A stretch of DNA of 64,000 nucleotides. It comes from Candidatus Campbellbacteria bacterium. GTDB taxonomy: Bacteria > Patescibacteriota > Minisyncoccia > Phycocordibacterales > EsbW-18. The notes beneath the pieces were generated by a model. The model was not told the origin of the DNA. It was given only the letters and a program-made list of their open reading frames with translations, and ran no database searches. The stretch spans positions 478,503-542,502 of the forward strand of contig CP064977.1 in assembly GCA_016699465.1 (NCBI GenBank). Direction: 5' to 3'. Both the position numbers and the translations under genes were made by a program. Positions 1,883 through 59,232 of the stretch are shown here, in pieces (the first letter of the stretch is position 1; each line of letters opens with the position of its first letter).

Positions 1883-3664
1883 TTATTCTTTGTGGATGTC
1901 AACAATCCTCAATCGGATGCCGTTCGTGTATCCAAATGTTTCTTTTTCCATAGAAGCAAGAAGTGTAATGGACTGCCCTGCCGACACACGTTCCAAGGTT
2001 TCGTTTCCCTTTGCAAAAAACTTCACAGCAGAAATCATTTTTCCTCCCGAGGTCTTAAAGAGTAATTTGAGATGTTGTTTTTCTTTTCCAAACATTTCAA
2101 TCCTATCAACAAGTATGTTTTCAAATGCAAACACAGGCTTTGGATTACCTGCCCCAAATGGCGCAAGGTGAGAAATACTTTCGTATACTTCTCGTGTCAC
2201 ATCATCGAGAGAAAGCACTGCATCAACGGTCATTTTTTCCTCAGATACTTCCTTAGACGCCAATTTTGTATGTGCATCTGAAAGTGCGGCCTCCAGAAGC
2301 ATAAGATTTTCAACTGTAATAGAAAACCCGCCCGAGTATTTGTGTCCTCCAAATTCAAGAAACAAGTGTCGCACCTCACTCATTAATTCCATCGCACCAA
2401 CACGACCATCAGATCGTACTGAACCTTTAATCACTGACGCATCGCCTCGCCCCCACACAAAGGCACTTTTTCCATACGCTTCCACTACGTGTGTTGCAGC
2501 AAGCCCAAGCAATCCCGGACGCCAGTGTGTATTCCCCACGACAATAACCGGAAGTTCATGCGGTGTTTCTTCAAACTTTTGTTTTATCTCTTTACTCATC
2601 TGCGCCACCGCGCCCTTTCGTTCGTTGTTAATAGAATCCAAGTGGCGCACGAGATTTTCTGCCTCAGTGAGGTTCGTTGTTGAGAGAAGTTGAAAGGCCG
2701 CCTCAGGTTCGTCCATACGCGATGCAGCGTTAATACGCGGGGTAATCATAAATACAACGTCATCCTCAGTCAGTGAATACTGTTTCATTCGGAGGTGCGA
2801 CAACAGTGTGCGAATACCAAGGCGTGGTGATTTTTTTAGCACTAAAAGTCCGTAGTGCGCAAAGACACGATTTTCTCCTGTCAGTGACACCATGTCAGAG
2901 AGCGTTGCAATACCCACCATGTCGAGTAACCATTTCTCCCAACCAATAGGAATGTCTTTTTTTGCCTTCAATAAGAGCGCTTGCGCAATTTTGAAAGCAA
3001 CACCTGCTCCACAAAGGTTTTTGTTTGGATACTCGTCTCCCTCTTGGTTTGGATTTACAATCGCATACGCTTTTGGCACGTCGTGATTTTGCATGTGGTG
3101 ATCGGTAATGATGACATCAATACCCGCATCCATCGCCCGAGCAACGTGCACCACATCTCCCATTCCACAATCAAGTGTGATAACGAGCCCAACCTTCTTG
3201 TCAATGAATGTTGAAATAGCATCTTCATTGAGTCCAAACCCTTCTGTGTTGCGGTGTGGGATGGTGACAGAGAAATTTTCATATCCTATTTTCTTCAAGA
3301 GGTCATGCATCACCACAGCAGACGGAATACCGTCGGCATCAAAATCAGAAAAGAGAGCGATATGTTCGTTACGCTCTACAGCCGACAGAATACGCTCAAT
3401 CGCTTTTTTCATGTCTCGCAACAAAAATGGATCATGCCCATCGTGGTCATATCGCGGTGAAAGAAAAGCATGGGCACCCTCTTTTGTCCTAATACCACGG
3501 TGAAATAGGAGTTTTTGAATAAGCTCGGAATACTCAGCAAGTTGCCCCCGTGTCTCCTTGTCTGGATTTTCAGCAACTATATACTTCTGTACCTGTTGGT
3601 TATTCATGGAATTGTTAGTATACCACCCCACCACTCTAGACTTTGTACCGATATATCGGTACAA
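1883..3664 (-). CDS. recJ: Single-stranded-DNA-specific exonuclease RecJ
   Basis: The DHH/DHHA1 pattern DFDADGIPSAVVMHDLL...ITDHHM is present. The likely real start is the internal Met (MNNQQVQK) near 3607, because the first 19 codons are translated from the upstream palindrome. Confidence 0.9.
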   Translation of the reverse strand: MYRYIGTKSRVVGWYTNNSMNNQQVQKYIVAENPDKETRGQLAEYSELIQKLLFHRGIRTKEGAHAFLSPRYDHDGHDPFLLRDMKKAIERILSAVERNEHIALFSDFDADGIPSAVVMHDLLKKIGYENFSVTIPHRNTEGFGLNEDAISTFIDKKVGLVITLDCGMGDVVHVARAMDAGIDVIITDHHMQNHDVPKAYAIVNPNQEGDEYPNKNLCGAGVAFKIAQALLLKAKKDIPIGWEKWLLDMVGIATLSDMVSLTGENRVFAHYGLLVLKKSPRLGIRTLLSHLRMKQYSLTEDDVVFMITPRINAASRMDEPEAAFQLLSTTNLTEAENLVRHLDSINNERKGAVAQMSKEIKQKFEETPHELPVIVVGNTHWRPGLLGLAATHVVEAYGKSAFVWGRGDASVIKGSVRSDGRVGAMELMSEVRHLFLEFGGHKYSGGFSITVENLMLLEAALSDAHTKLASKEVSEEKMTVDAVLSLDDVTREVYESISHLAPFGAGNPKPVFAFENILVDRIEMFGKEKQHLKLLFKTSGGKMISAVKFFAKGNETLERVSAGQSITLLASMEKETFGYTNGIRLRIVDIHKE

Positions 3665-12315: not shown

Positions 12316-12381
12316 GTTTCTATTATCGCACACGTTTGCATAAAAAAATTCCACATGAAGTGGATTTGTGTGCATTTTAGA

Positions 12382-12405
12382 GAATTTTTGTAACAACAAA
12401 AATTC
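12382..12405. promoter_or_regulatory. Palindromic operator GAATTTTTGT-aaca-ACAAAAATTC upstream of pilC
   Basis: 10 bp perfect inverted arms. A second copy with one mismatch lies upstream of pilB at 14401-14424, with about 35 nt of conserved context. Confidence 0.5.
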
Positions 12406-12466
12406 GTGATACAGAGCGAGTCTCTATTTTGTAGAAGCTCCTGCAGGCACGACGGTGCCGGAAGAA

Positions 12467-12521: not shown

Positions 12522-14270
12522 CTACTCCGTGACCACACGCAACACCTCCTCAAGGGTTGTAAGTCCTTGCACGGCCTTGTACACACCGTCTTCAATCATC
12601 GTCATCATCCCCTCTTTCTTTGCTTGCTCTTCCATTTCTTCCATCGACGCACGCTTAATCATGAGTTCGCGTAGTGCGCTTGAAACCTTGAGTACTTCAT
12701 GAATACCGATACGCCCCTTATACCCATCATCTGTGTCTGTAACATCTTTTGGTCTATAAAACGGGACATCTTTCCATGTCGCATTCTTTGCAACCAATCC
12801 TTCTGTCTTCAAAAAGCCCATCATTCGATCAAGATCAACCGATCTTCCTAGTGCTTTCAACTCATCAGCCGAAAGTGTGTACTTCTCTTTTCGTGCAAGC
12901 ACTCGCACCAAACGCTGTCCAACAATAACCTTGAGTGTTGATGCAATGAGAAATGGCTCTGCACCCATGTCCAACATTCGTGGCACGGCACCCGCAGCCG
13001 AGTTGGTGTGAATTGTTGAGAGCACAAGGTGACCAGTAAGCGCCGCGTTAATCGCGAGCCCAATTGTTTCACCGTCACGAATTTCTCCAACCATAATAAT
13101 GTCAGGATCTTGTCGAACAAGCGCACGTAGTCCATTACCAAACGTCATACCTATTTCTGGTTTTACCTGCGTCTGATTTATTCGTGGCATCTGATACTCA
13201 ATCGGATCTTCAATAGTAGAAATATTGACATCGGGCGTATTCAAAATATCGAGAACAGTATACAGCGTCGTGGTCTTTCCTGAACCCGTTGGACCAGTTG
13301 CGAGAATTAATCCTGTTGCTTGCTTTGTTGCCCAGTGGAGTGCCTCAAGTCCTCCTCCATGAAATCCGAGCGTCTCCAACGTAAAGCCTGATGCTCCTTC
13401 ATGCAAAATACGCATCACAATTTTTTCACCGTAGTAAATTGGAAGGGTTGAAACACGAAAACTCACACGCTCGCTCTCAATATTCATTTTGAATCGCCCA
13501 TCTTGCGGAAGTCGTTTTTCGTCCAGTTTCAAATTTGAAAGCACTTTAATACGCGCAACGATTCCGGCCGTTACTTGTTTCGGAAGCGTCATCGCATCAT
13601 GTAGTAAGCCGTCAATGCGATACCGAATCAACAAATCTTTTTCCATTGGTTCAATGTGAATATCTGAAGCGTTTTCAACAACGGCGTGACGAATAAGTGT
13701 TTCAACAATACGAATCACCGGAAGATCTTCGGCCAATTTTTTGAGTGCTTCTCCAGACGCGTTCTCTCCCACATTTTCAGATGATACGGAAAGCGCAGTG
13801 GCTTCATTTTTGAGAATATCGCCAAATTCCAACTTCAAACTTCGCTGGTATTGAATGAGCGCATGCTTAATCGAGTCAACATCCGTTAATCGTGGAAGAA
13901 TGGTTAGCCCTGTTTTCTTTTTGACAAAATCAATTGCCTTCAAGTCCTGCACGTCAAGCATGGCAACTTCCAGATCTTTTTCTGTTACCCGAAACGCAAT
14001 AATATTATTTGAACGAGCAATCGGTTCGGGAATAAGTGAGAGTGTTTTAAAATCTATCGTTTCATTTTTTAAATCAATAAACGGAATGCCAATAACGTGC
14101 GCCTTCGCACGACGCAAATCGTCTTCGGGAATAATTCCTTCTGACACAATCAAATCCTCAAACGAGATTTTTTTCTTTGTCGCCTCAGCTTCAAGCTCTT
14201 GGGCTTTTCCAAGAGAGAGCATTTTGGTATCAACCAGAAACTGAATGAGTTGTTGTATGTCAAATTGCAT
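12522..14270 (-). CDS. pilB: Type IV pilus assembly ATPase PilB (GspE family)
   Basis: Walker A GPTGSGKTTTLY, the Asp box and the His box of GspE/PilB ATPases are present. Confidence 0.9.
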   Translation of the reverse strand: MQFDIQQLIQFLVDTKMLSLGKAQELEAEATKKKISFEDLIVSEGIIPEDDLRRAKAHVIGIPFIDLKNETIDFKTLSLIPEPIARSNNIIAFRVTEKDLEVAMLDVQDLKAIDFVKKKTGLTILPRLTDVDSIKHALIQYQRSLKLEFGDILKNEATALSVSSENVGENASGEALKKLAEDLPVIRIVETLIRHAVVENASDIHIEPMEKDLLIRYRIDGLLHDAMTLPKQVTAGIVARIKVLSNLKLDEKRLPQDGRFKMNIESERVSFRVSTLPIYYGEKIVMRILHEGASGFTLETLGFHGGGLEALHWATKQATGLILATGPTGSGKTTTLYTVLDILNTPDVNISTIEDPIEYQMPRINQTQVKPEIGMTFGNGLRALVRQDPDIIMVGEIRDGETIGLAINAALTGHLVLSTIHTNSAAGAVPRMLDMGAEPFLIASTLKVIVGQRLVRVLARKEKYTLSADELKALGRSVDLDRMMGFLKTEGLVAKNATWKDVPFYRPKDVTDTDDGYKGRIGIHEVLKVSSALRELMIKRASMEEMEEQAKKEGMMTMIEDGVYKAVQGLTTLEEVLRVVTE

Positions 14271-14400
14271 GTAACGTGGGAATTTGAAATTAGAAGTGAG
14301 ATGTTGGAAACGTGAGGAGTTGGTGATTAGAAAAGATGCAATACTTTAGATTCTATTGTAGCATTTTTTGTTCGCAAAAAAGTCATTTCTATATTTTACA

Positions 14401-14424
14401 GAATTTTTGTAACAACAAAAGTTC
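14401..14424. promoter_or_regulatory. Second copy of the pilus operator (GAATTTTTGTAACAACAAAAGTTC) upstream of pilB
   Basis: 23 of 24 nt match the 12382-12405 site, and the flanks are also conserved. Confidence 0.5.
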
Positions 14425-14451
14425 GGGTACGAAGCACACATACATACAAAA

Positions 14452-33004: not shown

Positions 33005-33108
33005 AACAATGATAGTGTAAAGCTCAAAGTCCAAAGCTTAAAAAATAAACTGGGTGTTCTGACTTTTTTGGATTTTGTGCTTTAGATTTTGGATTTTTTA
33101 CAGAGTTT

Positions 33109-34635: not shown

Positions 34636-35190
34636 TTATTTCTTTAATGCTATTGAGAGTGCTGCACGCACAACCCACAACGGAGCACCTTTCGCTCCAT
34701 CTACACGCTCCACTGTTTCAAGTGTTGCCTGAGTCACCCGTGCATGAAACGGAAGCGAATCAAGAAGTCCAAGAAGTTGTGTCATTTGTTTCCACGATCC
34801 CTCAGAAAGAATGCTTGCCACAAACGTCCCCTCACGTGTGAGCGGGTCTTCCCCTTCTACTTGAACTTGTAGCACGGAAACGGGAGTTCCAACCACACGA
34901 CGAAGTCCTTCAATATCTTCAATAATTGAAATGATATCATTCGGCGTTTTAAAAAATGTATTTACCAACGCCCGCTCTTCTTTTAAACTCGAAAGAACTC
35001 CTGCGGTATCTCGTACGTTTCGTTCGCGCTCAACTTGCACTAACAGTTCTTCTTGGGTGAGAAGAATTTCAGCATGATACTGATTCGTACGAATAAGTAC
35101 CCACACGTACATACCGACACACACAACCGCCACAAGAGCTGCTGCATACACCGCGTAGTATCGTTTTATTTTTTGAACTACTGTTGTCAT
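34636..35190 (-). CDS. pilO: Type IV pilus assembly protein PilO-like
   Basis: N-terminal TM segment, a coiled-coil and a C-terminal domain, in the operon position after pilN. Confidence 0.55.
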   Translation of the reverse strand: MTTVVQKIKRYYAVYAAALVAVVCVGMYVWVLIRTNQYHAEILLTQEELLVQVERERNVRDTAGVLSSLKEERALVNTFFKTPNDIISIIEDIEGLRRVVGTPVSVLQVQVEGEDPLTREGTFVASILSEGSWKQMTQLLGLLDSLPFHARVTQATLETVERVDGAKGAPLWVVRAALSIALKK

Positions 35191-35885
35191 GGTGTTATAC
35201 GCTGCACCTCAGGGGACGTCGTACCACCCAGAGTCCCTTGTGTTGTCGACGACGTAAGAGTGCTCACTGTGCGCACCGACGAGGATGTTGCCGTTGTTGT
35301 AGATGATTCAAGATATTCAATAGGATTTCCTATTGCAGTAAGTACAAGTGTTATCACAAAATCAATATCTGCACTTCGTGCCAAACTTGAAACCGGAACA
35401 TCTACTCGAGAAAAAAGTGGTGATGAGCGAAGTGAATCACCAAGCGCAATGAGCGCCGTGCGAGTTTGGGCACGCCCCGTAAGTGTTACTGCGACTTCTG
35501 CCCCCTTGGCACCATACGATATATTGTGCACAGAAACGCCTGTAGGAATACGGGGCATAACATCTTGTAAAATAGATGTGAGAGACCTCTGAGAAAGCAC
35601 GCCTTGCAATAAGTCGGAGCGATCCTGTAAATCAGTAAGTACCTCTGTGCCACTCTGCTTACGCTGTAAATCAACAAGTGTTTTTGTCGCAGCAAGCTGG
35701 TCTTTTAAACCACCAATAGCTGATGTGGTGACTATCCACGAAGGAACCAAAAAAAGACCCAGAAGCACAAGTGAACAAATACCAAACACTAACACCACCA
35801 AAAGAATTCTTCTCCGGTGTTCCCATGCAACAGTGCGTTGATTTTTTATTGGGAGCAAATTAATCACATGTGTATTGTAACGCAT
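35187..35885 (-). CDS. pilN: Type IV pilus assembly protein PilN-like
   Basis: INLLP motif at the N-terminus, a TM segment, and a periplasmic domain with a Ser/Thr-rich tail. Confidence 0.6.
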   Translation of the reverse strand: MRYNTHVINLLPIKNQRTVAWEHRRRILLVVLVFGICSLVLLGLFLVPSWIVTTSAIGGLKDQLAATKTLVDLQRKQSGTEVLTDLQDRSDLLQGVLSQRSLTSILQDVMPRIPTGVSVHNISYGAKGAEVAVTLTGRAQTRTALIALGDSLRSSPLFSRVDVPVSSLARSADIDFVITLVLTAIGNPIEYLESSTTTATSSSVRTVSTLTSSTTQGTLGGTTSPEVQRITP

Positions 35886-35938: not shown

Positions 35939-37033
35939 CTATTCGTGAAGTGCGAGACCTATTGCGGACGCATATCCCAACGATTCAGCAAACGACATTT
36001 CCGGAACATACCCCTCCAAAGAAAAAGCATTCACCCACACATTTCCAACTTCAACAGGAATGTGCAACTGAGCAGAGAGATAATCCGCAAGACCGTGCAT
36101 ATTTGCATTCCCCCCAGAAAGAAATACTCGCTCAATAGGAATACGCGGGGCACTGGCATCTTTACTATCTTTGTGCGTCTGCCAATAGACGATGTACCGA
36201 TCTAATTCCGTGGTTATATTTTTTACGAACGTATCAAGTCCTCCACGAATGGCCGCATCTCCTGCAAAACGCATTCCTTCTTCATTTTTTATTCGCACTA
36301 TTTCTTCTTCTGTCATTTCTGGACGCGCCATACGCATCGCATCATCAACACTGTCTCCTCCAATTGCAACGGTCGCGGTAAAACGCACAGATTGTCCACG
36401 AACAACCGAGATACCAGAACGCGTTTTACCAATATCAACAACCATACATGCTCCCATAAAAGATTTTGGGACAATGGCACGTGCAATTGCTTGTGCCTCT
36501 ATTTCAAGGGACAGTGGTTCAAGACCTGCTGACATAAGAAGATCTGTGTACTCCTGTGAAGCGGTTTGTGGATACGCAGATACAGATACCAAACGCTGAT
36601 CTCCAACAGGTGGCGTATTTTGCACTACATCAAAATCAAATACCGCCTCTGCTGGAGCGAGTGGCACATTTTCTGCCAACTTAAACTCGAGAACATCTCG
36701 CACCTCTTTGTCGGAAATGTTTGCCGGAACGTACGCAGGAAAAATGTACCCCTCTTCCTCAGGAAGTGATGCTCGCACAAAGTGAAGCACGTGCTCTTCT
36801 CGAAAACGTGATAATACCTCAATGAGTTTTAGTGCATCAACCACCCTTCCATTAACAACAACTCCCTTTGGAATAGTTGCCGCTCCATAGCCACTCACTC
36901 GTCTGCCGTGCGTATGACTTTTTGAAAATGTTAAAAATTTTACAGAGTGATCAGATACATCAATACCAGCAGCTGGCGTTGTGAGATACGCTGGTGTTGG
37001 AAAAAGAGAAAGAACTCGTGACGAAAAGGTCAT
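35939..37033 (-). CDS. pilM: Type IV pilus assembly ATPase-like protein PilM (actin-like fold)
   Basis: FtsA/PilM-like architecture with ATP-binding motifs (GIDVSDHSVKF, DIGKTRSGISV). Confidence 0.75.
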   Translation of the reverse strand: MTFSSRVLSLFPTPAYLTTPAAGIDVSDHSVKFLTFSKSHTHGRRVSGYGAATIPKGVVVNGRVVDALKLIEVLSRFREEHVLHFVRASLPEEEGYIFPAYVPANISDKEVRDVLEFKLAENVPLAPAEAVFDFDVVQNTPPVGDQRLVSVSAYPQTASQEYTDLLMSAGLEPLSLEIEAQAIARAIVPKSFMGACMVVDIGKTRSGISVVRGQSVRFTATVAIGGDSVDDAMRMARPEMTEEEIVRIKNEEGMRFAGDAAIRGGLDTFVKNITTELDRYIVYWQTHKDSKDASAPRIPIERVFLSGGNANMHGLADYLSAQLHIPVEVGNVWVNAFSLEGYVPEMSFAESLGYASAIGLALHE

Positions 37034-37119
37034 GCCTCTATTCTACTCACGACAGAGAACAAGCGCAATAAAAAATGTGTTATTGTCGAACAAAAAGAGA
37101 AAGGTTTCGAAACACAGAC

Positions 37120-37458
37120 TTATCCTAAACGGGCTCCTGGCGGTATGTCTGTATCAGGAATAATGAAAGAAAACTTTCGTTCTTCACCCTCGCCCATAGA
37201 CGCGGCAAATAACATACCATTACTCTCAAGTCCTTTAATGATGCGCGGTTCAAGGTTTACTACAAACGCCGTTTTCTTTCCGACGAGTGTCTGAATATCA
37301 GAAACGTACTGTTTAATTCCAGAAACAATTTGTCGTGGTGAACCCTCTCCAAAATCAACAGACAATTTTAGAAGCTTGTCTGTTTCAGGAACTTCCTCAA
37401 CAGAAAGAATCTGCCCGATACGAATGTCTGCTTCGTGTAGTTGGTCGATAGTAATCAT
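37120..37458 (-). CDS. tRNA-binding domain protein (CsaA/Trbp111-like)
   Basis: LDIRIGQILSVEEVP..DKLLKLSVDFG OB-fold tRNA-binding signature. The MDFELILIY extension is repeat-derived. Confidence 0.75.
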   Translation of the reverse strand: MITIDQLHEADIRIGQILSVEEVPETDKLLKLSVDFGEGSPRQIVSGIKQYVSDIQTLVGKKTAFVVNLEPRIIKGLESNGMLFAASMGEGEERKFSFIIPDTDIPPGARLG

Positions 37459-37522
37459 ATATATAAGTATAAGTTCAAAATCCAAATATCAAAATCCAAA
37501 AAATTATTTTTCTTTCTACTTT

Positions 37523-37909
37523 CTACTTGCTCGCTCGTTTTCTATCTAAAAATCTCTGTAAAATAATTGCAGCTGCAGATGCGTCTATCATACTATTTGC
37601 TCCCGTAAATCGTGTTGCTTCCTGTGAGGAAAACCACTCGTGTTCAAACACCACTGGCACAGTAGTTTCTTTTTCAAGATTTTTTTTAAAATTCTGAATT
37701 TCAGGCATAATCACATTATCGTTTCCTTTCGTATCTGCTGAATATCCAAGCACAATAATATTCACATGCTCTTTTTGCGCAATCGCAACAATATCCGACA
37801 CAAGCGTGTGTGTGTTTTGCAAAACCTCCCGTGGAAACGCGAGCGTTTCACTGGTGTCCGACAGCGCGATACCTACGCGTTTTGTTCCATAATCAATGCC
37901 GAGGATCAT
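37523..37909 (-). CDS. ruvX: Putative pre-16S rRNA nuclease / Holliday junction resolvase-like RuvX (YqgF)
   Basis: MILGIDYGTKRVGIALSD N-terminal motif. Confidence 0.85.
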   Translation of the reverse strand: MILGIDYGTKRVGIALSDTSETLAFPREVLQNTHTLVSDIVAIAQKEHVNIIVLGYSADTKGNDNVIMPEIQNFKKNLEKETTVPVVFEHEWFSSQEATRFTGANSMIDASAAAIILQRFLDRKRASK

Positions 37910-38010
37910 GACAATATAACTATAATATACGACCACACATTCTAATAATTCACCTTTATAAAAACTTAGAGGGGTCGCGCATAGCGACCCCTTTCAAAAC
38001 CCATCTCTCA

Positions 38011-38532
38011 CTAATAACACTGAACGACAAAACCGACGATTTCGTAGTTCGAATCACCATCCACATCGTCTGTGAGCCAACGTGTTTGTGGTCCAACATA
38101 GTTGCACTTCAGACCAGGAGGACTCTTGGAAAGAAATGCGACCAACGAATCTCGATACCTGCAACCCGCCACACCGTCATACCAAGTGCATTCCTCTTTC
38201 GGGAGATAGTTCGGAACTGCTTGGATTCCACGGTCCTCACACTGGAGTGTATTTCCTTCAATGTCTCGTGGCGGAACCCCATCACTCTCTATCCATTCAC
38301 TACCAAGATTGATGAAGTTGCACAGCAGCTTGGGATTCTGTCTGCTGAAGGCAACAAACGAGGAGAAGAAGTCCCCATCAGCTGTTGGAAAAAAGTACAG
38401 ACTGTTTCCGTAGCTGATTGGAGCCTTCTCCTGTCGTACCAAATGGTTTCTGTGAATACTCTTCCCTTGTAATCCAACAAGAAGCATTAGAGCCATAAGG
38501 ATACTGGCAGCTAGAGCTGTTTTTTTTAACAC
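38011..38532 (-). CDS. Secreted cysteine-rich protein of unknown function
   Basis: Signal peptide MLKKTALAASILMALMLLVGLQG plus at least 8 Cys. It lies inside a segment flanked by a 96 bp duplication of the ruvX 5' end. Confidence 0.45.
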   Translation of the reverse strand: MLKKTALAASILMALMLLVGLQGKSIHRNHLVRQEKAPISYGNSLYFFPTADGDFFSSFVAFSRQNPKLLCNFINLGSEWIESDGVPPRDIEGNTLQCEDRGIQAVPNYLPKEECTWYDGVAGCRYRDSLVAFLSKSPPGLKCNYVGPQTRWLTDDVDGDSNYEIVGFVVQCY

Positions 38533-38573
38533 GACCTATTCCCCCTTGAGGTTTATGAAACGATCCAAAAGAA

Positions 38574-38729
38574 CTATACAATAAAAAAATACTGTTGCAA
38601 GTTAACCACCGGACCAAAAACACACCGGCCAATGTTTTGCAAAACCTCCCGTGGAAACGCGAGCGTTTCACTGGTGTCCGACAGCGCGATACCTACGCGT
38701 TTTGTTCCATAATCAATACCAAGAATCAT
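38574..38729 (-). pseudogene. Duplicated 5' fragment of ruvX, a truncated 51-codon reading frame
   Basis: 38634-38729 matches 37814-37909 at 92 of 96 nt and encodes MILGIDYGTKRVGIALSDTSETLAFPREVLQN before diverging. Its ATG overlaps the stop of the upstream gene as ATGA. Confidence 0.6.
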
Positions 38730-39034
38730 GTACGTGGAGGTTCCTCAACAGGTATATGGAGTAGTGCAATGACTTCAGCGGCAACTTCTTCGTAGTCACC
38801 TTTTCGGGCGCGTTCACGAATATCTTCACGTTCGGGAGAGTCGAGGGCTTCACTTATACGCCCTAAGTAATTTTGTCCCCATTCGTAGACAGCATTTGAG
38901 TTTGATGCAGCTGCACCAAGCGAGCGTTGAATGATACACCGCCGAAGCATGTTGCGATGAACAAGCTCGAGACGTCTCTCGGGTAATTCTGGTGTCACTG
39001 GCACCTCTGATGCATGATGTTCAAAACCTTCCAT
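38726..39034 (-). CDS. Hypothetical protein, GC-rich
   Basis: 102 aa. Translationally coupled (ATGA) to the ruvX 5' fragment. No RBS. Confidence 0.4.
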   Translation of the reverse strand: MEGFEHHASEVPVTPELPERRLELVHRNMLRRCIIQRSLGAAASNSNAVYEWGQNYLGRISEALDSPEREDIRERARKGDYEEVAAEVIALLHIPVEEPPRT

Positions 39035-39040
39035 ATATAT

Positions 39041-39502
39041 TTAGAGTGAAAAAGACTTATACATACCTAACCCAACTCCTATCGAACCAAACTTTTGATC
39101 CTCTGAAACTTTCCAATGTTGAAGTTCTCCATCAACACTTACAAATACATCGTATCCAGGATATACCCCACCCACACACGAAGACGGCATTGTTTCCGTC
39201 CAAAAAGTGAGGCAGTCGTTCGGCCATACAATTTTTTCCGAGCTTACAAGCTGAACACTTCTAATATATGAACCTGGACCAATTCTTCCTTCGTTTTCAT
39301 TATCTTTACGAACGGTTTCTTGAATACCTTTCACAGCATCGGGTTCATTTTCAAAACCAGAAAAAAGTATTTCTCCTGGTTCGTTAGTATCCACAGAAGA
39401 AGAGATTTCTTCGTTTTTTACTAAACCACCCAACACATAATAACCAAAAACCCCAATGAGTATTCCAACAACCAAACCTATACTAAGAGACTTTGTATCC
39501 AT
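39041..39502 (-). CDS. Membrane-anchored hypothetical protein
   Basis: N-terminal TM segment (LSIGLVVGILIGVFGYYVLGG) and a 130 aa extracytoplasmic domain. Confidence 0.45.
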   Translation of the reverse strand: MDTKSLSIGLVVGILIGVFGYYVLGGLVKNEEISSSVDTNEPGEILFSGFENEPDAVKGIQETVRKDNENEGRIGPGSYIRSVQLVSSEKIVWPNDCLTFWTETMPSSCVGGVYPGYDVFVSVDGELQHWKVSEDQKFGSIGVGLGMYKSFSL

Positions 39503-39508
39503 ACAGTG

Positions 39509-39580
39509 TGCCCTCGGTAGGAATCGAACCTACATCAGCAGCTCCGCAAGCTGCCGTCCTATCCGTTGAACGACGAGAGC
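39509..39580 (-). tRNA. tRNA-Arg (GCG)
   Basis: Cloverleaf built by hand. Anticodon loop TTGCGGA. The GCG anticodon is uncommon in bacteria. Confidence 0.65.
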
Positions 39581-39722
39581 ATAAAAAGGGTTGTACGCGG
39601 GCGCGAGAATGAAGTCGTTGAGACGGAAATTCGAGCGGCCATGTTCCCCGACTGAGCTTTTATATGATACCCCATACGAAACTCAACAGGCACACTCTAG
39701 CAAACTTGCGTGTTCTGCGCCA

Positions 39723-40181
39723 CTAAAAACCAGCAAGTTCTACAATTCGATCAGAGAATGTTTCGTGCACCTCCTCTTCATCAAGGTAGTCCAACAAAAT
39801 ATCACGAACATCGTCTGCCGAGACATCGGCAAGAGGCACAATAATGTGCGGCATAAACATCTTTTGTGATTTAAGAAGAAGTCGATTTGGCAACACGCGT
39901 TCATCTACCCAAAAAGATTCCAAGGTACGATAGGGAAAAAGAGTATCATCAATACGCACTCCCCTTTCTTGAATTTCATACTGAATTATTTTTGGATGAC
40001 GTAGGGCATGAAGACCAAGTGCCACAGCACCAATACCAATCACAAGCCCGAACAAAAAATTTCCTAGAAACGTCGCAAGAATAACTCCAGCGATTGCAAT
40101 AATACCAAGCCCCCAAAACCAATCGGAGCTTCGTGCTTTGTGTTCGTATTCGTACGTCTCCCACGTAAGGTGTGTTTGCAT
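39723..40181 (-). CDS. Membrane protein of unknown function
   Basis: 152 aa with two TM helices near the N-terminus. Confidence 0.5.
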   Translation of the reverse strand: MQTHLTWETYEYEHKARSSDWFWGLGIIAIAGVILATFLGNFLFGLVIGIGAVALGLHALRHPKIIQYEIQERGVRIDDTLFPYRTLESFWVDERVLPNRLLLKSQKMFMPHIIVPLADVSADDVRDILLDYLDEEEVHETFSDRIVELAGF

Positions 40182-48989: not shown

Positions 48990-49445
48990 TTACCGAAACA
49001 AAATAATTCCCACGGCTACCGATACATTGAGTGATTCCTTTTTTCCTTTCATTGGAATTTCAATCACTTCGTCACATTCTGCAAGAACGTCATGGGATAC
49101 TCCGCCAACCTCATTACCAAACACAAACGCAACAGGCCCTTGTACCGATATATCGGTACAAGGTTTTGAACGCGGGTCTTGCTCAACGGCAATAACCCGC
49201 ACACCGTCTTTTGTAAGTTTTTGTATGACGTCATTTGTTTCCTCGGCATATTCCCACGCTACACAATCTTGCGCACCAAGAGCAACTTTTGCTAGGTCTT
49301 TTCGATTGCGCCCGAAACGGTCAACGGGTGTTGGTGTCACGCCACACAGATACAACTTTGAAACACCCGCAGCGTCACACGTACGAAAAATAGATCCCAC
49401 ATTGTGCACGCTTCGGATGTTATCGAGAATGACGTACGTATTCAT
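48990..49445 (-). CDS. TrmH/SpoU-family tRNA/rRNA 2'-O-methyltransferase
   Basis: SpoU motifs NVGSIFRTCDAAG and VAFVFGNEVGGVS...IPMKG...SLNVSVAVGI. It contains the 20-26 bp perfect palindrome at 49135-49166 in frame (KPCTDISVQG). Confidence 0.8.
   Translation of the reverse strand: MNTYVILDNIRSVHNVGSIFRTCDAAGVSKLYLCGVTPTPVDRFGRNRKDLAKVALGAQDCVAWEYAEETNDVIQKLTKDGVRVIAVEQDPRSKPCTDISVQGPVAFVFGNEVGGVSHDVLAECDEVIEIPMKGKKESLNVSVAVGIILFR
49141..49160. promoter_or_regulatory. Third copy of the palindrome TGTACCGATATATCGGTACA, extended to 26 bp (CCTTGTACC...GGTACAAGG), inside the trmH CDS
   Basis: An exact match to the operator-like sites at 3639-3666 and 4081-4100. Confidence 0.45.
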
Positions 49446-50816: not shown

Positions 50817-50887
50817 AAATAATAGGTGTTGGAAGTTAGGAGTGAGAAGTTGGTGATTGGTTTGGAACGTTGGTTATTTTTTGAGCT

Positions 50888-53293
50888 TTATACTTTGAGC
50901 TTTGTGCTTACTCTCTTCATCTCACTCCAACGTTTTCCTGACGATGCTTCTGTGAGAACAGGAACGCCTCCTGCCTTCTCTGGTGAAAGTGCCGTCTCCA
51001 TAATCTCTTTCATCACAGGAACAATTGTTGAGACACTGTCTTCACGTACTTCAAAAATAAGTTCATCATGAATTTGCAACACTAACCGCACATCTGGTGA
51101 GAGATTATTTTTTGTAATGTACTCGTCTGCGCGAATCATCGCAACTTTAATAATATCTGCGGACGTTCCCTGAATTGGTGCGTTCACCGCCTGACGCTCT
51201 GCTTCGGCCTGCATAAATGGCAACGGTGAACGAATGGCGGAGAGTTGCCGTCGGCGCCCAAAAAGTGTTTCTGTATAACCTTTTTTACGCACCTCGCCCT
51301 TTGCTCGAGAAATGTATTCCCGCAACCCAACAAATGTTTTTTCATATTCCGCGAGATATTTTTGTGCGTCACTGCGCGACATCTTTGCTGTGGCGGCGAG
51401 TGCGTTTGCACCCATGCCATAAATAATACCGAAGTTAATCACCTTTGCTGTCCGTCGCATATCCACGGTGACATCTTCTGGGGCAACACCAAAAATTTCT
51501 GCCGCAACCGTTGTGTGAATGTCTCCACCTTCGTGAAACGTCTTCACCAATTTTTCATCGCGCGACATGATTGCGGCAATGCGCAATTCAATCTGCGAGT
51601 AATCAAATGCCACGAGTGCATATCCTTTTTCAGCGACAAATGCTCCACGCACTGCGCGACCGAGTTCTGTTCGTATTGGAATATTTTGTAAATTTGGATT
51701 TTGCGAAGAGAGTCGTCCTGTTGTTGTTCCCATCTGCATGAACGTTGTATGTAAGCGCCCATCTTCACCAATTAGAGACGGGAACGCATCAATGTATGTT
51801 GAAAGTAGTTTTTGCAATTCTCGATACTCTAAAATTTCGTTGATAATCGGATGTGCATCAACAAGCTTCTGTAACTCCGACTCTCGCGTAGAGCGTTGTC
51901 CTGTTGATGTTTTTTTGCCACCCTTCAATCCCATTTTTTCAAACAAGACATCCCCGAGTTGTCGAGGTGAGTTTATGTTAAATTCACCCCCCGCATGCTG
52001 GTAAATTCTACGAGCAAGCGCGTCCAATTCACTGTGATAATCTCGCGACAACTCCTTGAGATACTCAACGTCGAGACGAATACCCACATCGGTCATTTTT
52101 GTGAGTACGGGCGTCAGCGGTTTTTCAATTGTTTCCAAAAGGGGTGTGAGTCCCTCCTTGTGAAGATCTGCGACAATTTTTGTGTGTGCAACCTTAAGTG
52201 ATTCTGTTTTTGCATACGCGAGAATATCTTCTTCAGAGGGCGATGTCATATCTGAATTGAGCAACCACAACCCGAGGCGTGCTTCTTCAAGATCGCGTGC
52301 TGAAATTATTTCTTTTACTGGCTCTGGTGCATCTTCAAAAAGTTTTTCACTACGACCAAAATGCTCCTTGAGACGCGCTGTGAGCGACCGAAACCCGAGT
52401 TCGGTAAAAAGTGTCGTAACCACAGATGTGTCCACACTCTCGCTCCATGTTTTTTCTGGCAACACAAACGAAATCGGCACATCACGACGAATCGTTGCAA
52501 GCATTTTTGAAAATTCAGCATCTTCTTTCCCTTCTTGTAGGAGTTTTACTGTGCGTGCAGTAACTCCAGATGCAATAACTTTTTGCTCATCTTTTTTGAG
52601 TGCGGTGTATATATCCTTAAGCGAACCGAATGTGGTGACAAGTGTTGTTGCTGTTTTTTCACCAATACCTGCAATGCCTGGAATATTATCGGATGGATCC
52701 CCGCGAAGACCTTTGTAATCTGGGAGCAATTTTGGACCAAATCCAAAACGAGCCTGCACATCTTTTTCTCCGTATAAAATAGTGTCATGCATTCCTTTGC
52801 GAAGCGTAAACACACGAACCCGATTTCCATCCACGAGCTGAAGCGTATCCATATCACCCGAGGTGATAACAATTTCAATATCATCCCGTTTTTTCATTTG
52901 CTCAACAATCGTGCCCAACACATCGTCCGCCTCAAATCCTTCACACTCATACAGTGGTATTGAAAGTGCCTTGAGCACATCACGGCTACGTTCAATTTGT
53001 CGTACCAAATCATCTTCAATTTTTGCGCGCGTTCCTTTGTATCCAACAAACGCTTCGTGCCGATACGTTGGTTTTGGTAAATCGTACGCAGCAACAATGT
53101 AATCCGGCTTGAGTTCTGCCACCATTTTTAACAACATTGCCGAGAGACCATAGAGCGCACCTGTTGGCTCTCCTGTAGGAGATGCAAAATCAGGAAGTGC
53201 GTGATATGCACGGTGAATAATGGCATGCGTATCAAGAAGCACAAGACGTTTTGTTTCTTTTTTTACAGTTTTTTTTGTTGGAACTTTTGCCAT
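50888..53293 (-). CDS. polA: DNA polymerase I
   Basis: N-terminal 5'-3' exonuclease (LLDTHAIIHRAYHA) and C-terminal family A polymerase motifs (DYSQIELR, QIHDELIFE). 801 aa. Confidence 0.9.
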   Translation of the reverse strand: MAKVPTKKTVKKETKRLVLLDTHAIIHRAYHALPDFASPTGEPTGALYGLSAMLLKMVAELKPDYIVAAYDLPKPTYRHEAFVGYKGTRAKIEDDLVRQIERSRDVLKALSIPLYECEGFEADDVLGTIVEQMKKRDDIEIVITSGDMDTLQLVDGNRVRVFTLRKGMHDTILYGEKDVQARFGFGPKLLPDYKGLRGDPSDNIPGIAGIGEKTATTLVTTFGSLKDIYTALKKDEQKVIASGVTARTVKLLQEGKEDAEFSKMLATIRRDVPISFVLPEKTWSESVDTSVVTTLFTELGFRSLTARLKEHFGRSEKLFEDAPEPVKEIISARDLEEARLGLWLLNSDMTSPSEEDILAYAKTESLKVAHTKIVADLHKEGLTPLLETIEKPLTPVLTKMTDVGIRLDVEYLKELSRDYHSELDALARRIYQHAGGEFNINSPRQLGDVLFEKMGLKGGKKTSTGQRSTRESELQKLVDAHPIINEILEYRELQKLLSTYIDAFPSLIGEDGRLHTTFMQMGTTTGRLSSQNPNLQNIPIRTELGRAVRGAFVAEKGYALVAFDYSQIELRIAAIMSRDEKLVKTFHEGGDIHTTVAAEIFGVAPEDVTVDMRRTAKVINFGIIYGMGANALAATAKMSRSDAQKYLAEYEKTFVGLREYISRAKGEVRKKGYTETLFGRRRQLSAIRSPLPFMQAEAERQAVNAPIQGTSADIIKVAMIRADEYITKNNLSPDVRLVLQIHDELIFEVREDSVSTIVPVMKEIMETALSPEKAGGVPVLTEASSGKRWSEMKRVSTKLKV

Positions 53294-54203: not shown

Positions 54204-55928
54204 ATGGTTATTTTTGACGAAGACAAACAAAATAAAAAATTTCAACAACTACGCGAACAAGAAGAAGAGGAGTTAATGCAGGTGCTTTCGCAAAAATATA
54301 CTCTTCCCTACGTTGACCTCTCGGCAACCCCCATTAACCCAGACGCACTCATTCTTGTTCCTGAAGCATTAGCTCGTGAGGGCATGCTTGCTGCTTTTGG
54401 AATAACTGGAAAAGTTGTCTCTGTTGCTGTACACGCACCAGAAAATACAGCCACAAAGTCCGCTCTTGCCGAGCTGGAAAATCGCGGATACAAAACAACT
54501 CTCTTTCTCACTTCAACAAAAAGTTTGGAATTTATTTGGGATAGATACAAAGACCTCTCCTACAGTGCCGGAAGCAAAAAAGGAATGCTTGATGTGGGTA
54601 GCGAAGACATGACTGAGCTCGTTTCCAAAGTTCGCCACCTTGAAGATATTAAAAAACTCTTTGAAGAGGCGCTTGGCATGCAAAAAACGCACCGCATTTC
54701 TCGTATCATTGAGGTGCTCCTTTCCAGTGCCCTTGCCACCAAAGCATCCGACATTCACATAGAACCCGAAGAAACCAGCGTGCGTATTCGTATGCGTCTG
54801 GACGGTGTGCTTGCTGACGTTGCAAATATTGACGCAGAAACATATCATCTCGTACTCTCTCGTTTCAAATTACTTTCTGCACTTAAACTCAACGTACAAA
54901 GTGAGGCGCAGGACGGACGATTCAGTATCAACTTCAAAGATGTCAGCATTGAAATTCGTACCTCTATTCTCCCAGGACAGTACGGCGAGTCTATTGTGAT
55001 GCGTATTCTCAACCCTGATTCTATTTCTGTGTCCATCGAAAAACTCGGCATGCGCGATGATTTGTTTGCGGTAGTAAATCAAGCGATTGCAAAACCAAAC
55101 GGACTCATTCTCACCACGGGTCCAACCGGTTCAGGAAAAACGACGACACTCTACGCGTTTCTCAAAAAAGTGCACACGCCCGACATTAAAATCATCACCA
55201 TCGAAGATCCAATTGAGTACCACTTGAAAGGTGTCGTACAAACACAAGTGGACAGCAATCACGACTACACATTCCAAAGCGGATTGCGCGCCGCACTTCG
55301 ACAAGACCCTGACATCATCATGGTGGGTGAAATTCGAGACAATGAAACGGCCGAAATTGCGATTCACGCCGCACTCACTGGTCACCTTGTGTTCTCAACA
55401 CTCCACACCAACTCCGCAGCGGGTGCATTCACTCGACTCATCGACGTTGGTATTAATCCCCGCATCCTTGGCTCTGCGCTCTCACTCGCACTTGCACAAC
55501 GACTTGTACGAAAACTATGCGAAACCTGCAAACAAGAAGTACCACTTGAGGGCGATGAGAAAGAAAAAATCGAACGCGTACTTGGTACGGTTGTGGATAC
55601 AACAAAAATTGCAGGACTTCAGCGAGAACGGGTGTGGCACGCAAGCGAAAAAGGATGTGAAGCCTGCAATGGTCTTGGCTACAAGGGACGCATGGGGTTG
55701 TATGAAGGAATTGTGGTGAACTCAGCAATCGAAGAAATTGTTGAATCATCACCGAGCGAGCGCGAGATTAGAAAAGTTGCCGACGCACAGGGATTGCTCA
55801 CTATGACCCAAGACGCAGTGATCAAAGTACTCGAAGGAAAAACAACCACGGACGAAATTATGCGCGTGGTTGATTTGAGCGTTGAAACAACAACCCCAGA
55901 AACTCCAACACCACTTCCTGAAATCTAA
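54204..55928 (+). CDS. Second type IV pilus / type II secretion ATPase paralog (GspE/PilB family)
   Basis: Walker A GPTGSGKTTTLY and GspE Asp/His boxes. The C-terminal zinc-finger-like CETC...CEAC motif is present. Confidence 0.85.
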   Translation: MVIFDEDKQNKKFQQLREQEEEELMQVLSQKYTLPYVDLSATPINPDALILVPEALAREGMLAAFGITGKVVSVAVHAPENTATKSALAELENRGYKTTLFLTSTKSLEFIWDRYKDLSYSAGSKKGMLDVGSEDMTELVSKVRHLEDIKKLFEEALGMQKTHRISRIIEVLLSSALATKASDIHIEPEETSVRIRMRLDGVLADVANIDAETYHLVLSRFKLLSALKLNVQSEAQDGRFSINFKDVSIEIRTSILPGQYGESIVMRILNPDSISVSIEKLGMRDDLFAVVNQAIAKPNGLILTTGPTGSGKTTTLYAFLKKVHTPDIKIITIEDPIEYHLKGVVQTQVDSNHDYTFQSGLRAALRQDPDIIMVGEIRDNETAEIAIHAALTGHLVFSTLHTNSAAGAFTRLIDVGINPRILGSALSLALAQRLVRKLCETCKQEVPLEGDEKEKIERVLGTVVDTTKIAGLQRERVWHASEKGCEACNGLGYKGRMGLYEGIVVNSAIEEIVESSPSEREIRKVADAQGLLTMTQDAVIKVLEGKTTTDEIMRVVDLSVETTTPETPTPLPEI

Positions 55929-58137: not shown

Positions 58138-58662
58138 ATGTCCGGCCACAATAAATGGAGTCAAATAAAAGAAAAAAAAGGAGCTACTGACGCAAAGCGC
58201 GGTAAGTTGTTTACCAAATTAGTAAAATTAATTAAGACTGAGGCCCGCATCACAAAGGGTGACCTCAATGCGCCAACGCTTAAAGCGGCAATAGAAAAAG
58301 CACGTACGGCGAATATGCCAAAAGATAACATCGACCGCGCAATACAAAGTGCGCAAAATACAGCCGCTGATGAAAAAGTTGTGTACGAAGCATTTGGTCC
58401 AGGTGGATGTGCGCTCATTATTGAAGGACTTACCGATAGTAAAAACCGGACTTCCCAGGAAATGAAACATCTTCTTTCAGAACACGATCTTGCACTCGCA
58501 GCCCCAGGTTCTGCAAGTTGGGCATTTACAAAAACACATGAGGGTTGGACACCAACAACCACCGTTCCCCTTTCAGAAGAAGATGGCGCAAAACTTTCTG
58601 CACTTATTGAAGAACTTGAAAACAACGACGATGTGCAGGAGGTGTATACAAATGCAGAATGA
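58138..58662 (+). CDS. yebC: YebC/PmpR-family transcriptional regulatory protein
   Basis: MSGHNKWSQIKEKKGATDAKRGKLFTKL N-terminus with full-length conservation. Confidence 0.9.
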   Translation: MSGHNKWSQIKEKKGATDAKRGKLFTKLVKLIKTEARITKGDLNAPTLKAAIEKARTANMPKDNIDRAIQSAQNTAADEKVVYEAFGPGGCALIIEGLTDSKNRTSQEMKHLLSEHDLALAAPGSASWAFTKTHEGWTPTTTVPLSEEDGAKLSALIEELENNDDVQEVYTNAE

Positions 58663-58761
58663 TGCAAAAACTCAAAATCCAAAATTTAAAGCTCAAAAAA
58701 TTATGAAATTATTACACTTTGAAACATTTTTTGGATTTTGTGCTTTGAACTTTGTGCTTTT

Positions 58762-59232
58762 ATGATTACTCTTGGTATTGATCCCGGCTACGACCGACTT
58801 GGTATTGCACTCCTTGAAGGCGACCGACAAAAACAAGTGATTATTTTTTCTGAGTGTTTTGAAACATGTTCAGCAGACGATTTTGAAACTCGCCTCCACG
58901 CCGCCGTGTCTCATGTGCGAGATATTTTACACACCTATACACCTGACAACGTTGCACTTGAAACACTTTTTTTTAGTAACAATCAAAAAACAGCTATGCA
59001 CGTGGCCGAAACACGTGGAGCACTTTTGTTTGCGATAACCGATGCTCACATTTCCGCCCATCAGTATGCACCACAGGCAATAAAGGTTGCTGTTGCAGGA
59101 AGCGGTCGTGGAAGTAAAGATGATATTGCCCGTATGCTCCACAAACTTCTTTCAATTCCAAATAAAAAAATACGCGATGATGAATACGATGCTATTGCTG
59201 TAGCCCTTACACACATGGTGAGTTGCAAGTAG
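58762..59232 (+). CDS. ruvC: Crossover junction endodeoxyribonuclease RuvC
   Basis: MITLGIDPGYDRLGIALLEG and the downstream acidic catalytic residues. The MCFELCAF extension is repeat-derived. Confidence 0.85.
   Translation: MITLGIDPGYDRLGIALLEGDRQKQVIIFSECFETCSADDFETRLHAAVSHVRDILHTYTPDNVALETLFFSNNQKTAMHVAETRGALLFAITDAHISAHQYAPQAIKVAVAGSGRGSKDDIARMLHKLLSIPNKKIRDDEYDAIAVALTHMVSCK

Follow-up and report, generated by a model that had tools for sequence, protein, structure and literature searches.

A Single-Gene Insertion Between Two Copies of the ruvX Start in Candidatus Campbellbacteria: A Probable Old Insertion Scar With Gene Conversion Between the Copies

Introduction

In a 64-kb stretch of a Candidatus Campbellbacteria chromosome (hereafter the window), the beginning of the essential gene ruvX occurs twice, and a gene for a small secreted protein (the cargo gene) lies between the two copies. 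How did this gene come to stand at the start of ruvX, and why are the two copies so alike? An earlier note on this DNA had proposed an integrative element that targets gene 5′ ends and regenerates them. The evidence favors known processes, newly encountered in a phylum that has received little study, over a new class of 5′-targeting element. We consider it probable that the locus is the old scar of an insertion that required no recombinase and took place in a common ancestor, that gene conversion has since homogenized the two copies, and that no autonomous element is involved. Coordinates are window positions, and all genes of the locus are on the minus strand.

The Duplicated ruvX Start

Full-length ruvX (yqgF; 37523–37909, minus strand) encodes a protein of 128 aa (QQR82204.1) that matches the Pfam RuvX profile (E 1.1e-26), and its TIGR00250 score exceeds the cut-off. 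A repeat search identified a direct repeat of 98 nt, 95/98 identical (97%) and with a spacing of 820 nt, which consists of one upstream base, the ruvX ATG, and the first 32 codons. Copy A (37813–37910) holds ruvX nt 1–97 plus 1 nt upstream and lies inside the functional gene. Copy B (38633–38730) is a ruvX 5′ stub, placed in the ancestral ATGA overlap with an upstream gene, here called N, which encodes a 102-aa conserved hypothetical protein (38726–39034, minus strand) and is coupled translationally to ruvX in relatives. The duplication described in the earlier note is real, but it measures 98 rather than 96 nt and has three mismatches instead of four. These fall at ruvX nt 6, 9, and 12, all of them synonymous third codon positions, and on the plus strand the stub reads A and the full gene G at each of them. 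The 64-kb window holds no other long near-perfect repeat of comparable kind, so the search for further duplicated gene starts nearby, which the earlier note had recommended, yielded none.

Copy B supplies the first 32 codons of a 51-aa open reading frame (ORF; 38574–38729, minus strand), whose ATG overlaps the TGA stop of N as ATGA. This ORF matches positions 3–33 of the 134 in the RuvX profile (E 3e-7), and its remainder is unrelated. With only its first 32 codons derived from RuvX, the stub lacks the complete RNase H-like fold (~130 aa). Proteins of the locus were deposited as QQR82204–82208, and the stub (QQR82206.1) is labeled “Holliday junction resolvase RuvX” in GenBank; it is actually a fragment, and in practice this entry should be treated as such. 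N had been described as GC-rich, and it is only slightly richer than its surroundings (G+C 0.45–0.49 vs. ~0.42).

The Inserted Cassette

The insert (37911–38632, 722 nt) is a complete expression unit with a promoter, a Shine-Dalgarno sequence, a GTG-initiated ORF of 173 aa, and a terminator, all on the minus strand. A consensus promoter scan placed a sigma-70-like promoter (TTGCAA, 16 nt, TATAGT) at 38573–38600. The Shine-Dalgarno sequence, AAGGGGGA (38540–38547), stands 7 nt before the GTG of the cargo ORF (38011–38532); the GenBank annotation of this protein (QQR82205.1) begins at a later Met. The cargo gene has its own terminator, as the earlier note had stated. It is an intrinsic-terminator-like hairpin, AGGGGTCGC-TATGC-GCGACCCCT, with a 9-bp stem that includes 7 GC pairs, followed by the T-run CTAAGTTTTT (37970–37992). 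Finally, an AT-rich segment of 40 nt (37910–37949) abuts the ruvX ATG and contains TATAGT (37919–37924) at −15 to −10 of that ATG. We infer that this segment may have become the substitute promoter of ruvX and of the genes that follow it, or may provide a near-leaderless start.

No recombinase is encoded in the insert, where the 173-aa ORF is the only gene and has no family match. Integrases, transposases, and reverse transcriptases were also absent from the 20 large window ORFs scanned, which are housekeeping or type IV pilus genes. Apart from the terminator stem, no inverted repeats of at least 14 nt were found in 36500–40000, and this interval showed neither terminal inverted repeats nor an attC-like structure.

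The Junction in Relatives

Contigs of relatives were reached through their RuvX homologues. In six of them (L001, L002, L003–L005, and L007), N runs into ruvX with a 4-nt overlap (ATGA), and nothing intervenes. By blastn and alignment, window 37910–38632 is additional DNA relative to these contigs, with the break placed exactly at the ruvX ATG and after ruvX nt 97. The uninterrupted order in six contigs indicates that the insertion is derived and the ATGA junction ancestral. The comparison with relatives that the earlier note had called for supports that note on two points: the sequences confirm N-ATGA-ruvX as the ancestral junction, predicted to be translationally coupled, and they bear out an insertion at the ruvX start, the 722 nt being absent from all six contigs. 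The window N is 81–84% identical in amino acid sequence to its orthologues in L001 and L002.

One other contig, L006, which comes from a Joint Genome Institute (JGI) metagenome and represents the nearest relative recovered, has the same order as the window: a 38-codon RuvX stub (1919–2035), promoter, cargo orthologue, terminator, AT-rich segment, and full ruvX. The two copies of its direct repeat, 95 nt in length, are 100% identical. The promoter (TTGCAA, 16 nt, TATAAT) is at the same position, the cargo GTG is preceded by the Shine-Dalgarno sequence AAGGGAGGA, and the terminator hairpin recurs at 2643–2666 with stem and loop altered. The AT-rich segments of the two genomes are identical at 38/40 positions, whereas the rest of the 3′ non-coding part of the cassette is much less conserved. 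Both junctions are shared: at one, ...AACA is followed by TTGGC[C/G]GGTGT, and at the other, ...TATAGTTATATTGT[C/T] is followed by ATG. Past both junctions, the two genomes continue into homologous cassette sequence. The 38-aa stub of L006 has been called an RNase H-fold protein by JGI and, like its counterpart in GenBank, is a fragment.

Judged by nucleotide identity, the window and L006 are mutually closest relatives for three flanking genes (88.7% for a 152-aa gene, 87.6% for the tRNA-binding gene, and 80.4% for pilM, vs. 70–83% with other relatives). Between these two genomes, the cassette is 88.5% identical in its coding sequence and 83–84% in its non-coding parts, which contain indels, and the flanks are 79–89% identical. 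The synonymous divergence (dS) is 0.46 for the cargo gene, 0.61, 0.63, and 0.83 for neighboring genes, and 1.2 for ruvX. Identical junctions together with host-like divergence of the cassette make a single insertion in the common ancestor the simplest explanation. A second ruvX 5′ copy was present at 0 of 88 other ruvX loci, 80 of them from Patescibacteria species representatives, which argues that the duplication is not a recurrent, targeted phenomenon. Another close RuvX (P0128) sits on a 16-kb Logan contig; look-ups by exact sequence of this protein, and of N and the cargo protein of the window, gave no record.

Concerted Evolution of the Two Copies

Over the 97 nt shared by the copies of the window and L006, 13 sites agree within each genome and differ between genomes; at none do the two stubs share one base and the two gene copies another. 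Variation is otherwise limited to the edges of the repeat, at nt 6, 9, and 12 in the window stub and nt 96 in the L006 gene copy. The two copies differ at three sites within the window and at one within L006. A comparison of the 32 codons of the repeat between the genomes shows 14 synonymous differences (proportion of synonymous differences, pS, 0.60) and no amino acid change. At this pS, an independently evolving, unconstrained stub should differ from its parent at many positions. Selection on the encoded peptide does not explain the likeness of the copies because the stub tail is not conserved (51 codons in total in the window vs. 38 in L006; tail sequence IGRCVFGPVVNLQQYFFIV vs. IGGCSD). 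The earlier note had allowed for relatives with the same arrangement in which the fragment has a conserved function; the arrangement does recur in L006, but the unconserved tail speaks against a conserved peptide. The distribution of sites appears to be a signature of ongoing gene conversion between the copies, with escape at the homology borders.

The opening codons after the ATG are ATT CTT GGT in the window stub, ATT CTC GGT in the outgroups, and ATC CTC GGC in the window gene copy and in both L006 copies. This fits a stub edge that retains the N-linked allele, and it does not settle which alleles came from the donor and which from the recipient.

The tuf and rrn paralogues are bacterial repeats that undergo concerted evolution by gene conversion. 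The same process has been described for repeats in Mycobacterium tuberculosis (PMC12046097). As in these systems, the ruvX copies group by genome, and divergence persists only at the edges of the block. Unlike them, the pair consists of a 98-nt non-functional stub and the start of an essential single-copy gene, arranged as direct repeats 820 nt apart.

Origin of the Insertion

By what route could the cassette have entered? The event would fall in the ancestor shared by the organisms of the window and of L006. A fragment from a related lineage, with a complete secreted-protein gene directly upstream of that lineage's own ruvX, would have entered the N-ruvX junction with ruvX as its sole homology. 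If the fragment became circular, a single (Campbell-type) crossover within ruvX nt 1–98 may have inserted it. Alternatively, a linear fragment may have been incorporated by homology-facilitated illegitimate recombination (HFIR), with the homologous join inside ruvX and the illegitimate join at ruvX nt 97/98. Both routes would lead to the same product, N-ATGA-[ruvX 1–97 stub]-cassette-[intact ruvX]. In the alignment, cassette-type and N-type upstream sequences cease to align at the ruvX ATG (plus 1 nt), and the duplication would begin at the ATG because donor and recipient had no homology upstream of it. As in a product of single crossover or HFIR, the duplication corresponds to the homologous segment, and one of its boundaries lies where homology ends.

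Both routes have precedents. In Escherichia coli, single-crossover integration of circular molecules gives duplications of the homologous segment of 109–950 bp (PMC3240628). For type VI secretion system (T6SS), Rhs, and contact-dependent growth inhibition (CDI) loci, HFIR has been proposed as the source of insertions that take place beside a conserved anchor and move older gene fragments away from it (PMC5361080), and as related in that paper, it takes place during natural transformation in Acinetobacter, Streptococcus pneumoniae, and Pseudomonas stutzeri. Natural competence has been demonstrated in other Patescibacteria (PMC10633639, PMC10187176), and the window encodes type IV pilus components (two PilB, PilC, PilM, PilN, and a pilin); as evidence for RecA-dependent recombination linked to DNA uptake, both are circumstantial.

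After the insertion, N would have kept its original stop and coupling context, now leading into a dead 51-codon stub. The cargo terminator would separate N from ruvX and from the genes that follow it, a tRNA-binding-domain gene (37120–37458), pilM (35939–37033), and pilN (35187–35885), and these are presumably driven by the 40-nt AT-rich segment that arrived with the cassette. The comparison with L006 indicates that non-reciprocal recombination between the 98-nt copies has kept both near-identical in each lineage as the lineages diverged, with only the edges escaping. Recombination between the repeats could also remove the cargo cleanly; the persistence of the cassette would be accounted for by purifying selection on the cargo.

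Several observations weigh against this account. The arrangement expected of the donor, with the cargo directly upstream of ruvX and no stub, is absent from the collections searched, so that the origin step is reconstructed from its product alone. Repeats of 98 nt at a distance of 820 nt should delete easily, and their persistence requires selection for the cargo, which is itself deduced. For ruvX, the window is 80% identical to L006 in nucleotide sequence and 82–83% identical to L001 and L002; this gene does not group the window with L006, and the locus has a mosaic history. The cargo dS of 0.46 is somewhat below that of the pooled flanks, which leaves room for later transfer. The structure is carried by two genomes, and with this number a single event followed by conversion is not formally separable from two site-specific insertions. 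The promoter scan made no call in the 40-nt segment and lends no support to a promoter role there.

Two of the alternatives would make the cassette mobile. A decayed or non-autonomous integrative element, with the ruvX 5′ end as its att site and a tyrosine or serine recombinase acting in trans, would bring its own ruvX start and promoter as replacements. In that case the cassette might have entered the window and L006 genomes separately, with a new duplication each time. Such an element agrees with a discrete, self-contained cassette between direct repeats that is present in some close relatives and absent from others, that has the same junction position in two genomes, and that lies in an islet adjoining a tRNA gene; near-identical copies in each genome are also what fresh insertions would leave. 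However, no recombinase was found in the insert or the large ORFs scanned, there are no inverted repeats and no att-like substructure, the cassette is in no other context or collection searched, and none of the 88 other ruvX loci has a duplicate. Furthermore, the divergence is host-like down to the non-coding indels, and two separate insertions would need donors exactly as diverged as their hosts. We therefore regard a site-specific cassette as unlikely, and the gene-5′-targeting integrative element of the earlier note, for which no recombinase, inverted repeats, or occurrence beyond the window and L006 was found, is not upheld. The other mobile alternative dispenses with a recombinase. In this “homology-hitchhiking” scheme, a circle of 820 nt (the cargo plus one repeat) would be excised by RecA-mediated recombination, taken up by competent Campbellbacteria, and returned to ruvX by single crossover; the stub would be a homing arm, kept identical to the host ruvX by selection. 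The structure is exactly the expected integration product, excision would restore the scar-free N-ATGA-ruvX seen in relatives, and duplications of 109–950 bp arise by this route in experiments (PMC3240628). Competence is known in Patescibacteria, and few stretches of the locus are as conserved as the opening 32 codons of ruvX (81–86% nucleotide identity across relatives). Reciprocal excision and re-integration, however, give no homogenization, and diverged alleles would leave the copies different at every polymorphic site. There is also no sign of recent spread; the cassette is known only from two sister lineages with host-like divergence, and we find such cycling improbable.

The remaining alternatives explain far less. 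The source is a metagenome-assembled genome, and the three mismatches resemble strain-level single-nucleotide polymorphisms, so two strains, one with N-ruvX and one with cargo-ruvX, might have been merged through their common ruvX start during assembly or polishing. This is very hard to maintain. The same stub-cassette-ruvX order, with a junction at the same base, is found in an independent JGI metagenome contig of a different species-level lineage, and this second assembly rules out an artefact for practical purposes; moreover, the stub-cassette junction must physically exist to assemble, and the window belongs to a contig of 811,376 bp deposited with QQR-series protein accessions. The template and variable repeats of a diversity-generating retroelement are suggested by a near-identical pair of ~100 nt with A in the stub opposite G in the gene, on the plus strand, at every mismatch. 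None of the scanned window ORFs encodes a reverse transcriptase; what differs is the third position of three codons, without effect on the protein, at the 5′ end of a housekeeping nuclease gene, which is not the adenine-directed diversification of a ligand-binding C-terminus; and the window's three differences are absent from L006. We give this explanation almost no weight. Two other classes of element were rejected. The insert has no attC-like inverted repeats, has its own promoter, and is accompanied by no integrase that we found, which excludes an integron gene cassette. A transposon, insertion sequence, or miniature inverted-repeat element with a giant target-site duplication was dismissed for the lack of terminal inverted repeats and of a transposase, and for a duplication of 98 nt in place of the usual 2–15 bp.

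Comparison With Known Systems

Under the old insertion scar that we favor, the locus can be set beside three kinds of system. It resembles Campbell-type integration at the lacZ end in E. coli (PMC3240628) in that the insert is flanked by a direct duplication of the shared homologous segment, of about 100 bp, that no dedicated recombinase is needed, and that the event is reversible through the repeats. Unlike the E. coli cases, the insertion is natural and evolutionarily old and belongs to the chromosome of a member of the Patescibacteria; a circular intermediate is a hypothesis, and the homologous segment comes from the 5′ end of an essential gene, which is left intact with a new upstream region. 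In the T6SS effector-immunity, Rhs, and CDI arrays attributed to HFIR, one conserved anchor likewise supplies the homology, a foreign gene is added beside it, the displaced piece remains, and the locus is a hot spot whose cargo differs from strain to strain. Those arrays have the anchor upstream and leave orphan 3′ fragments or immunity genes; at ruvX the anchor is downstream, and the orphan is a 5′ stub. Integrative elements of the kind that restores the end of the gene they enter, which include genomic islands in tRNA or protein genes and non-autonomous derivatives of these, share with this locus flanking direct repeats of the target sequence, an intact target, and variable presence. Direct repeats of the target, as expected of attL and attR, are thus found here, but plain homologous recombination yields the same feature. 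The locus departs from such elements in the small size of the insert (0.7 kb) and in its target, the 5′ end of a gene; it has neither an att substructure nor further cargo, no integrase was found, and the occurrence is single and lineage-specific, without recurrence in unrelated hosts.

If this account is correct, the locus shows cleanly how an ultra-small, uncultivated bacterium has naturally gained a gene through one-sided homologous recombination: the event took place at the start of the essential gene ruvX, which stays intact while its regulation is rewired. It also provides sequence-level evidence of gene conversion in Campbellbacteria, acting on a tract of 98 nt and persisting across species-level divergence.

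The Cargo Protein

The cargo protein has a typical Sec-type signal peptide at its N-terminus, in agreement with the earlier note, which had counted at least eight cysteines in the 173-aa product; the ORF contains six. After the signal peptide come two tandem repeats of ~45 aa of the form S[FL]VAF..P.L.CN[FY]...W...DG...QC. The local score of this internal repeat is 64, compared with 22.8 ± 4.4 in 500 shuffles. We propose that the product is a disulfide-bonded, two-repeat extracellular protein. It is 90% identical to the L006 orthologue (2105–2629, 174 aa), and the ratio of non-synonymous to synonymous divergence (dN/dS) between the two is 0.08–0.10, which by this measure places the gene under purifying selection.

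The homology and structure searches that the earlier note had suggested recovered the L006 orthologue and gave no match to a family, a defense system, or a structure that would back the effector, toxin, or bacteriocin-like role suggested there. Pfam, NCBIfam, PHROG, and PADLOC returned nothing for the cargo, a PDB profile search gave only non-significant C-type-lectin-like matches (E 0.09 and 0.95), and an AlphaFold single-sequence model was unusable (pLDDT 39). An HMMER scan of 1.8 billion representatives produced just two marginal partial matches, P0124 and P0125, the latter a repeat protein of 775 aa. In all, the homology searches returned the protein itself, its L006 orthologue, and these two. 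Protein databases, viral contigs, phages, and plasmids contained the cassette nowhere else, and two scans of metagenome contigs, one for a protein pattern and the other for a conserved DNA word of 22 nt, found no further copy.

P0124 (L090 2876–3214) is the sole detectable distant homologue of the first cargo repeat (33% identity, E 7e-6). It is a lipoprotein of 112 aa on a GC-rich contig that clearly lies outside the Patescibacteria (candidate phyla radiation), with unannotated small genes around it.

The tRNA-Arg-to-ruvX Interval and Other Features of the Window

The conserved boundary opposite ruvX is tRNA-Arg(GCG) (39508–39580, minus strand), the sole match in an Rfam scan of 37400–39700. 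On comparison of the contigs, the interval between this tRNA gene and ruvX is a small variable islet that holds different small genes in each relative. From the tRNA side, the window has a 153-aa gene, N, the stub, and the cargo, while L006 has a fusion (N′-229′), the stub, and the cargo. L001 and L002 carry N alone, L003 carries a DUF5652 gene and N, and L007 carries a 229-aa gene and an N-like gene (N′). The window N is only 39% identical in amino acid sequence to the N-like domain of L006, vs. 81–84% to N of L001 and L002, which points to allele replacement within the islet. These comparisons mark the interval as a small hot spot for the swapping of secreted and membrane protein genes, and the proteins exchanged are plausibly relevant to a surface-attached lifestyle.

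The 153-aa gene is a second single-gene insertion (39038–39497, minus strand), placed exactly between the tRNA-Arg 3′ end and the start of N; its ORF, called at 39041–39502 on the minus strand, encodes a membrane-anchored protein without homologues. It is absent in L001, L002, and L006, and T[G/A]TATGGA, an imperfect repeat of 8 nt, bounds it. The ATG of N is just 8 nt past the tRNA 3′ end in L001 and L002. Upstream of its stub, L006 encodes a fusion of 321 aa (945–1910) that consists of an N-like domain, 68% identical in amino acid sequence to N of L007, followed by a homologue of the separate 229-aa protein of L007. The order within the fusion is opposite to that in L007, which indicates both rearrangement and allele replacement in the islet.

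Some repeated sequences elsewhere in the window were also recorded. A family of intergenic motifs, TTTTTGGATTTTG...TTTG..., occurs in both orientations at 587–638, 33019–33098, 37464–37515, 50870–50909, and 58661–58762. One of these copies, located between ruvX and the tRNA-binding gene, matches L006 at 50/50 positions, whereas nearby coding DNA is only 79–88% identical, and the family is probably a conserved promoter or operator element. The perfect 22-nt palindrome TTGTACCGATATATCGGTACAA is found twice, 45 kb apart (3635–3664 and 49140–49169), and could be a shared operator or terminator. A repeat of 33 nt with 94% identity (12374–12406 and 14393–14425) flanks one of two pilB (T2SSE) paralogues, and the two pilB genes themselves give an inverted match of 155 nt (12963–13117 and 55297–55451).

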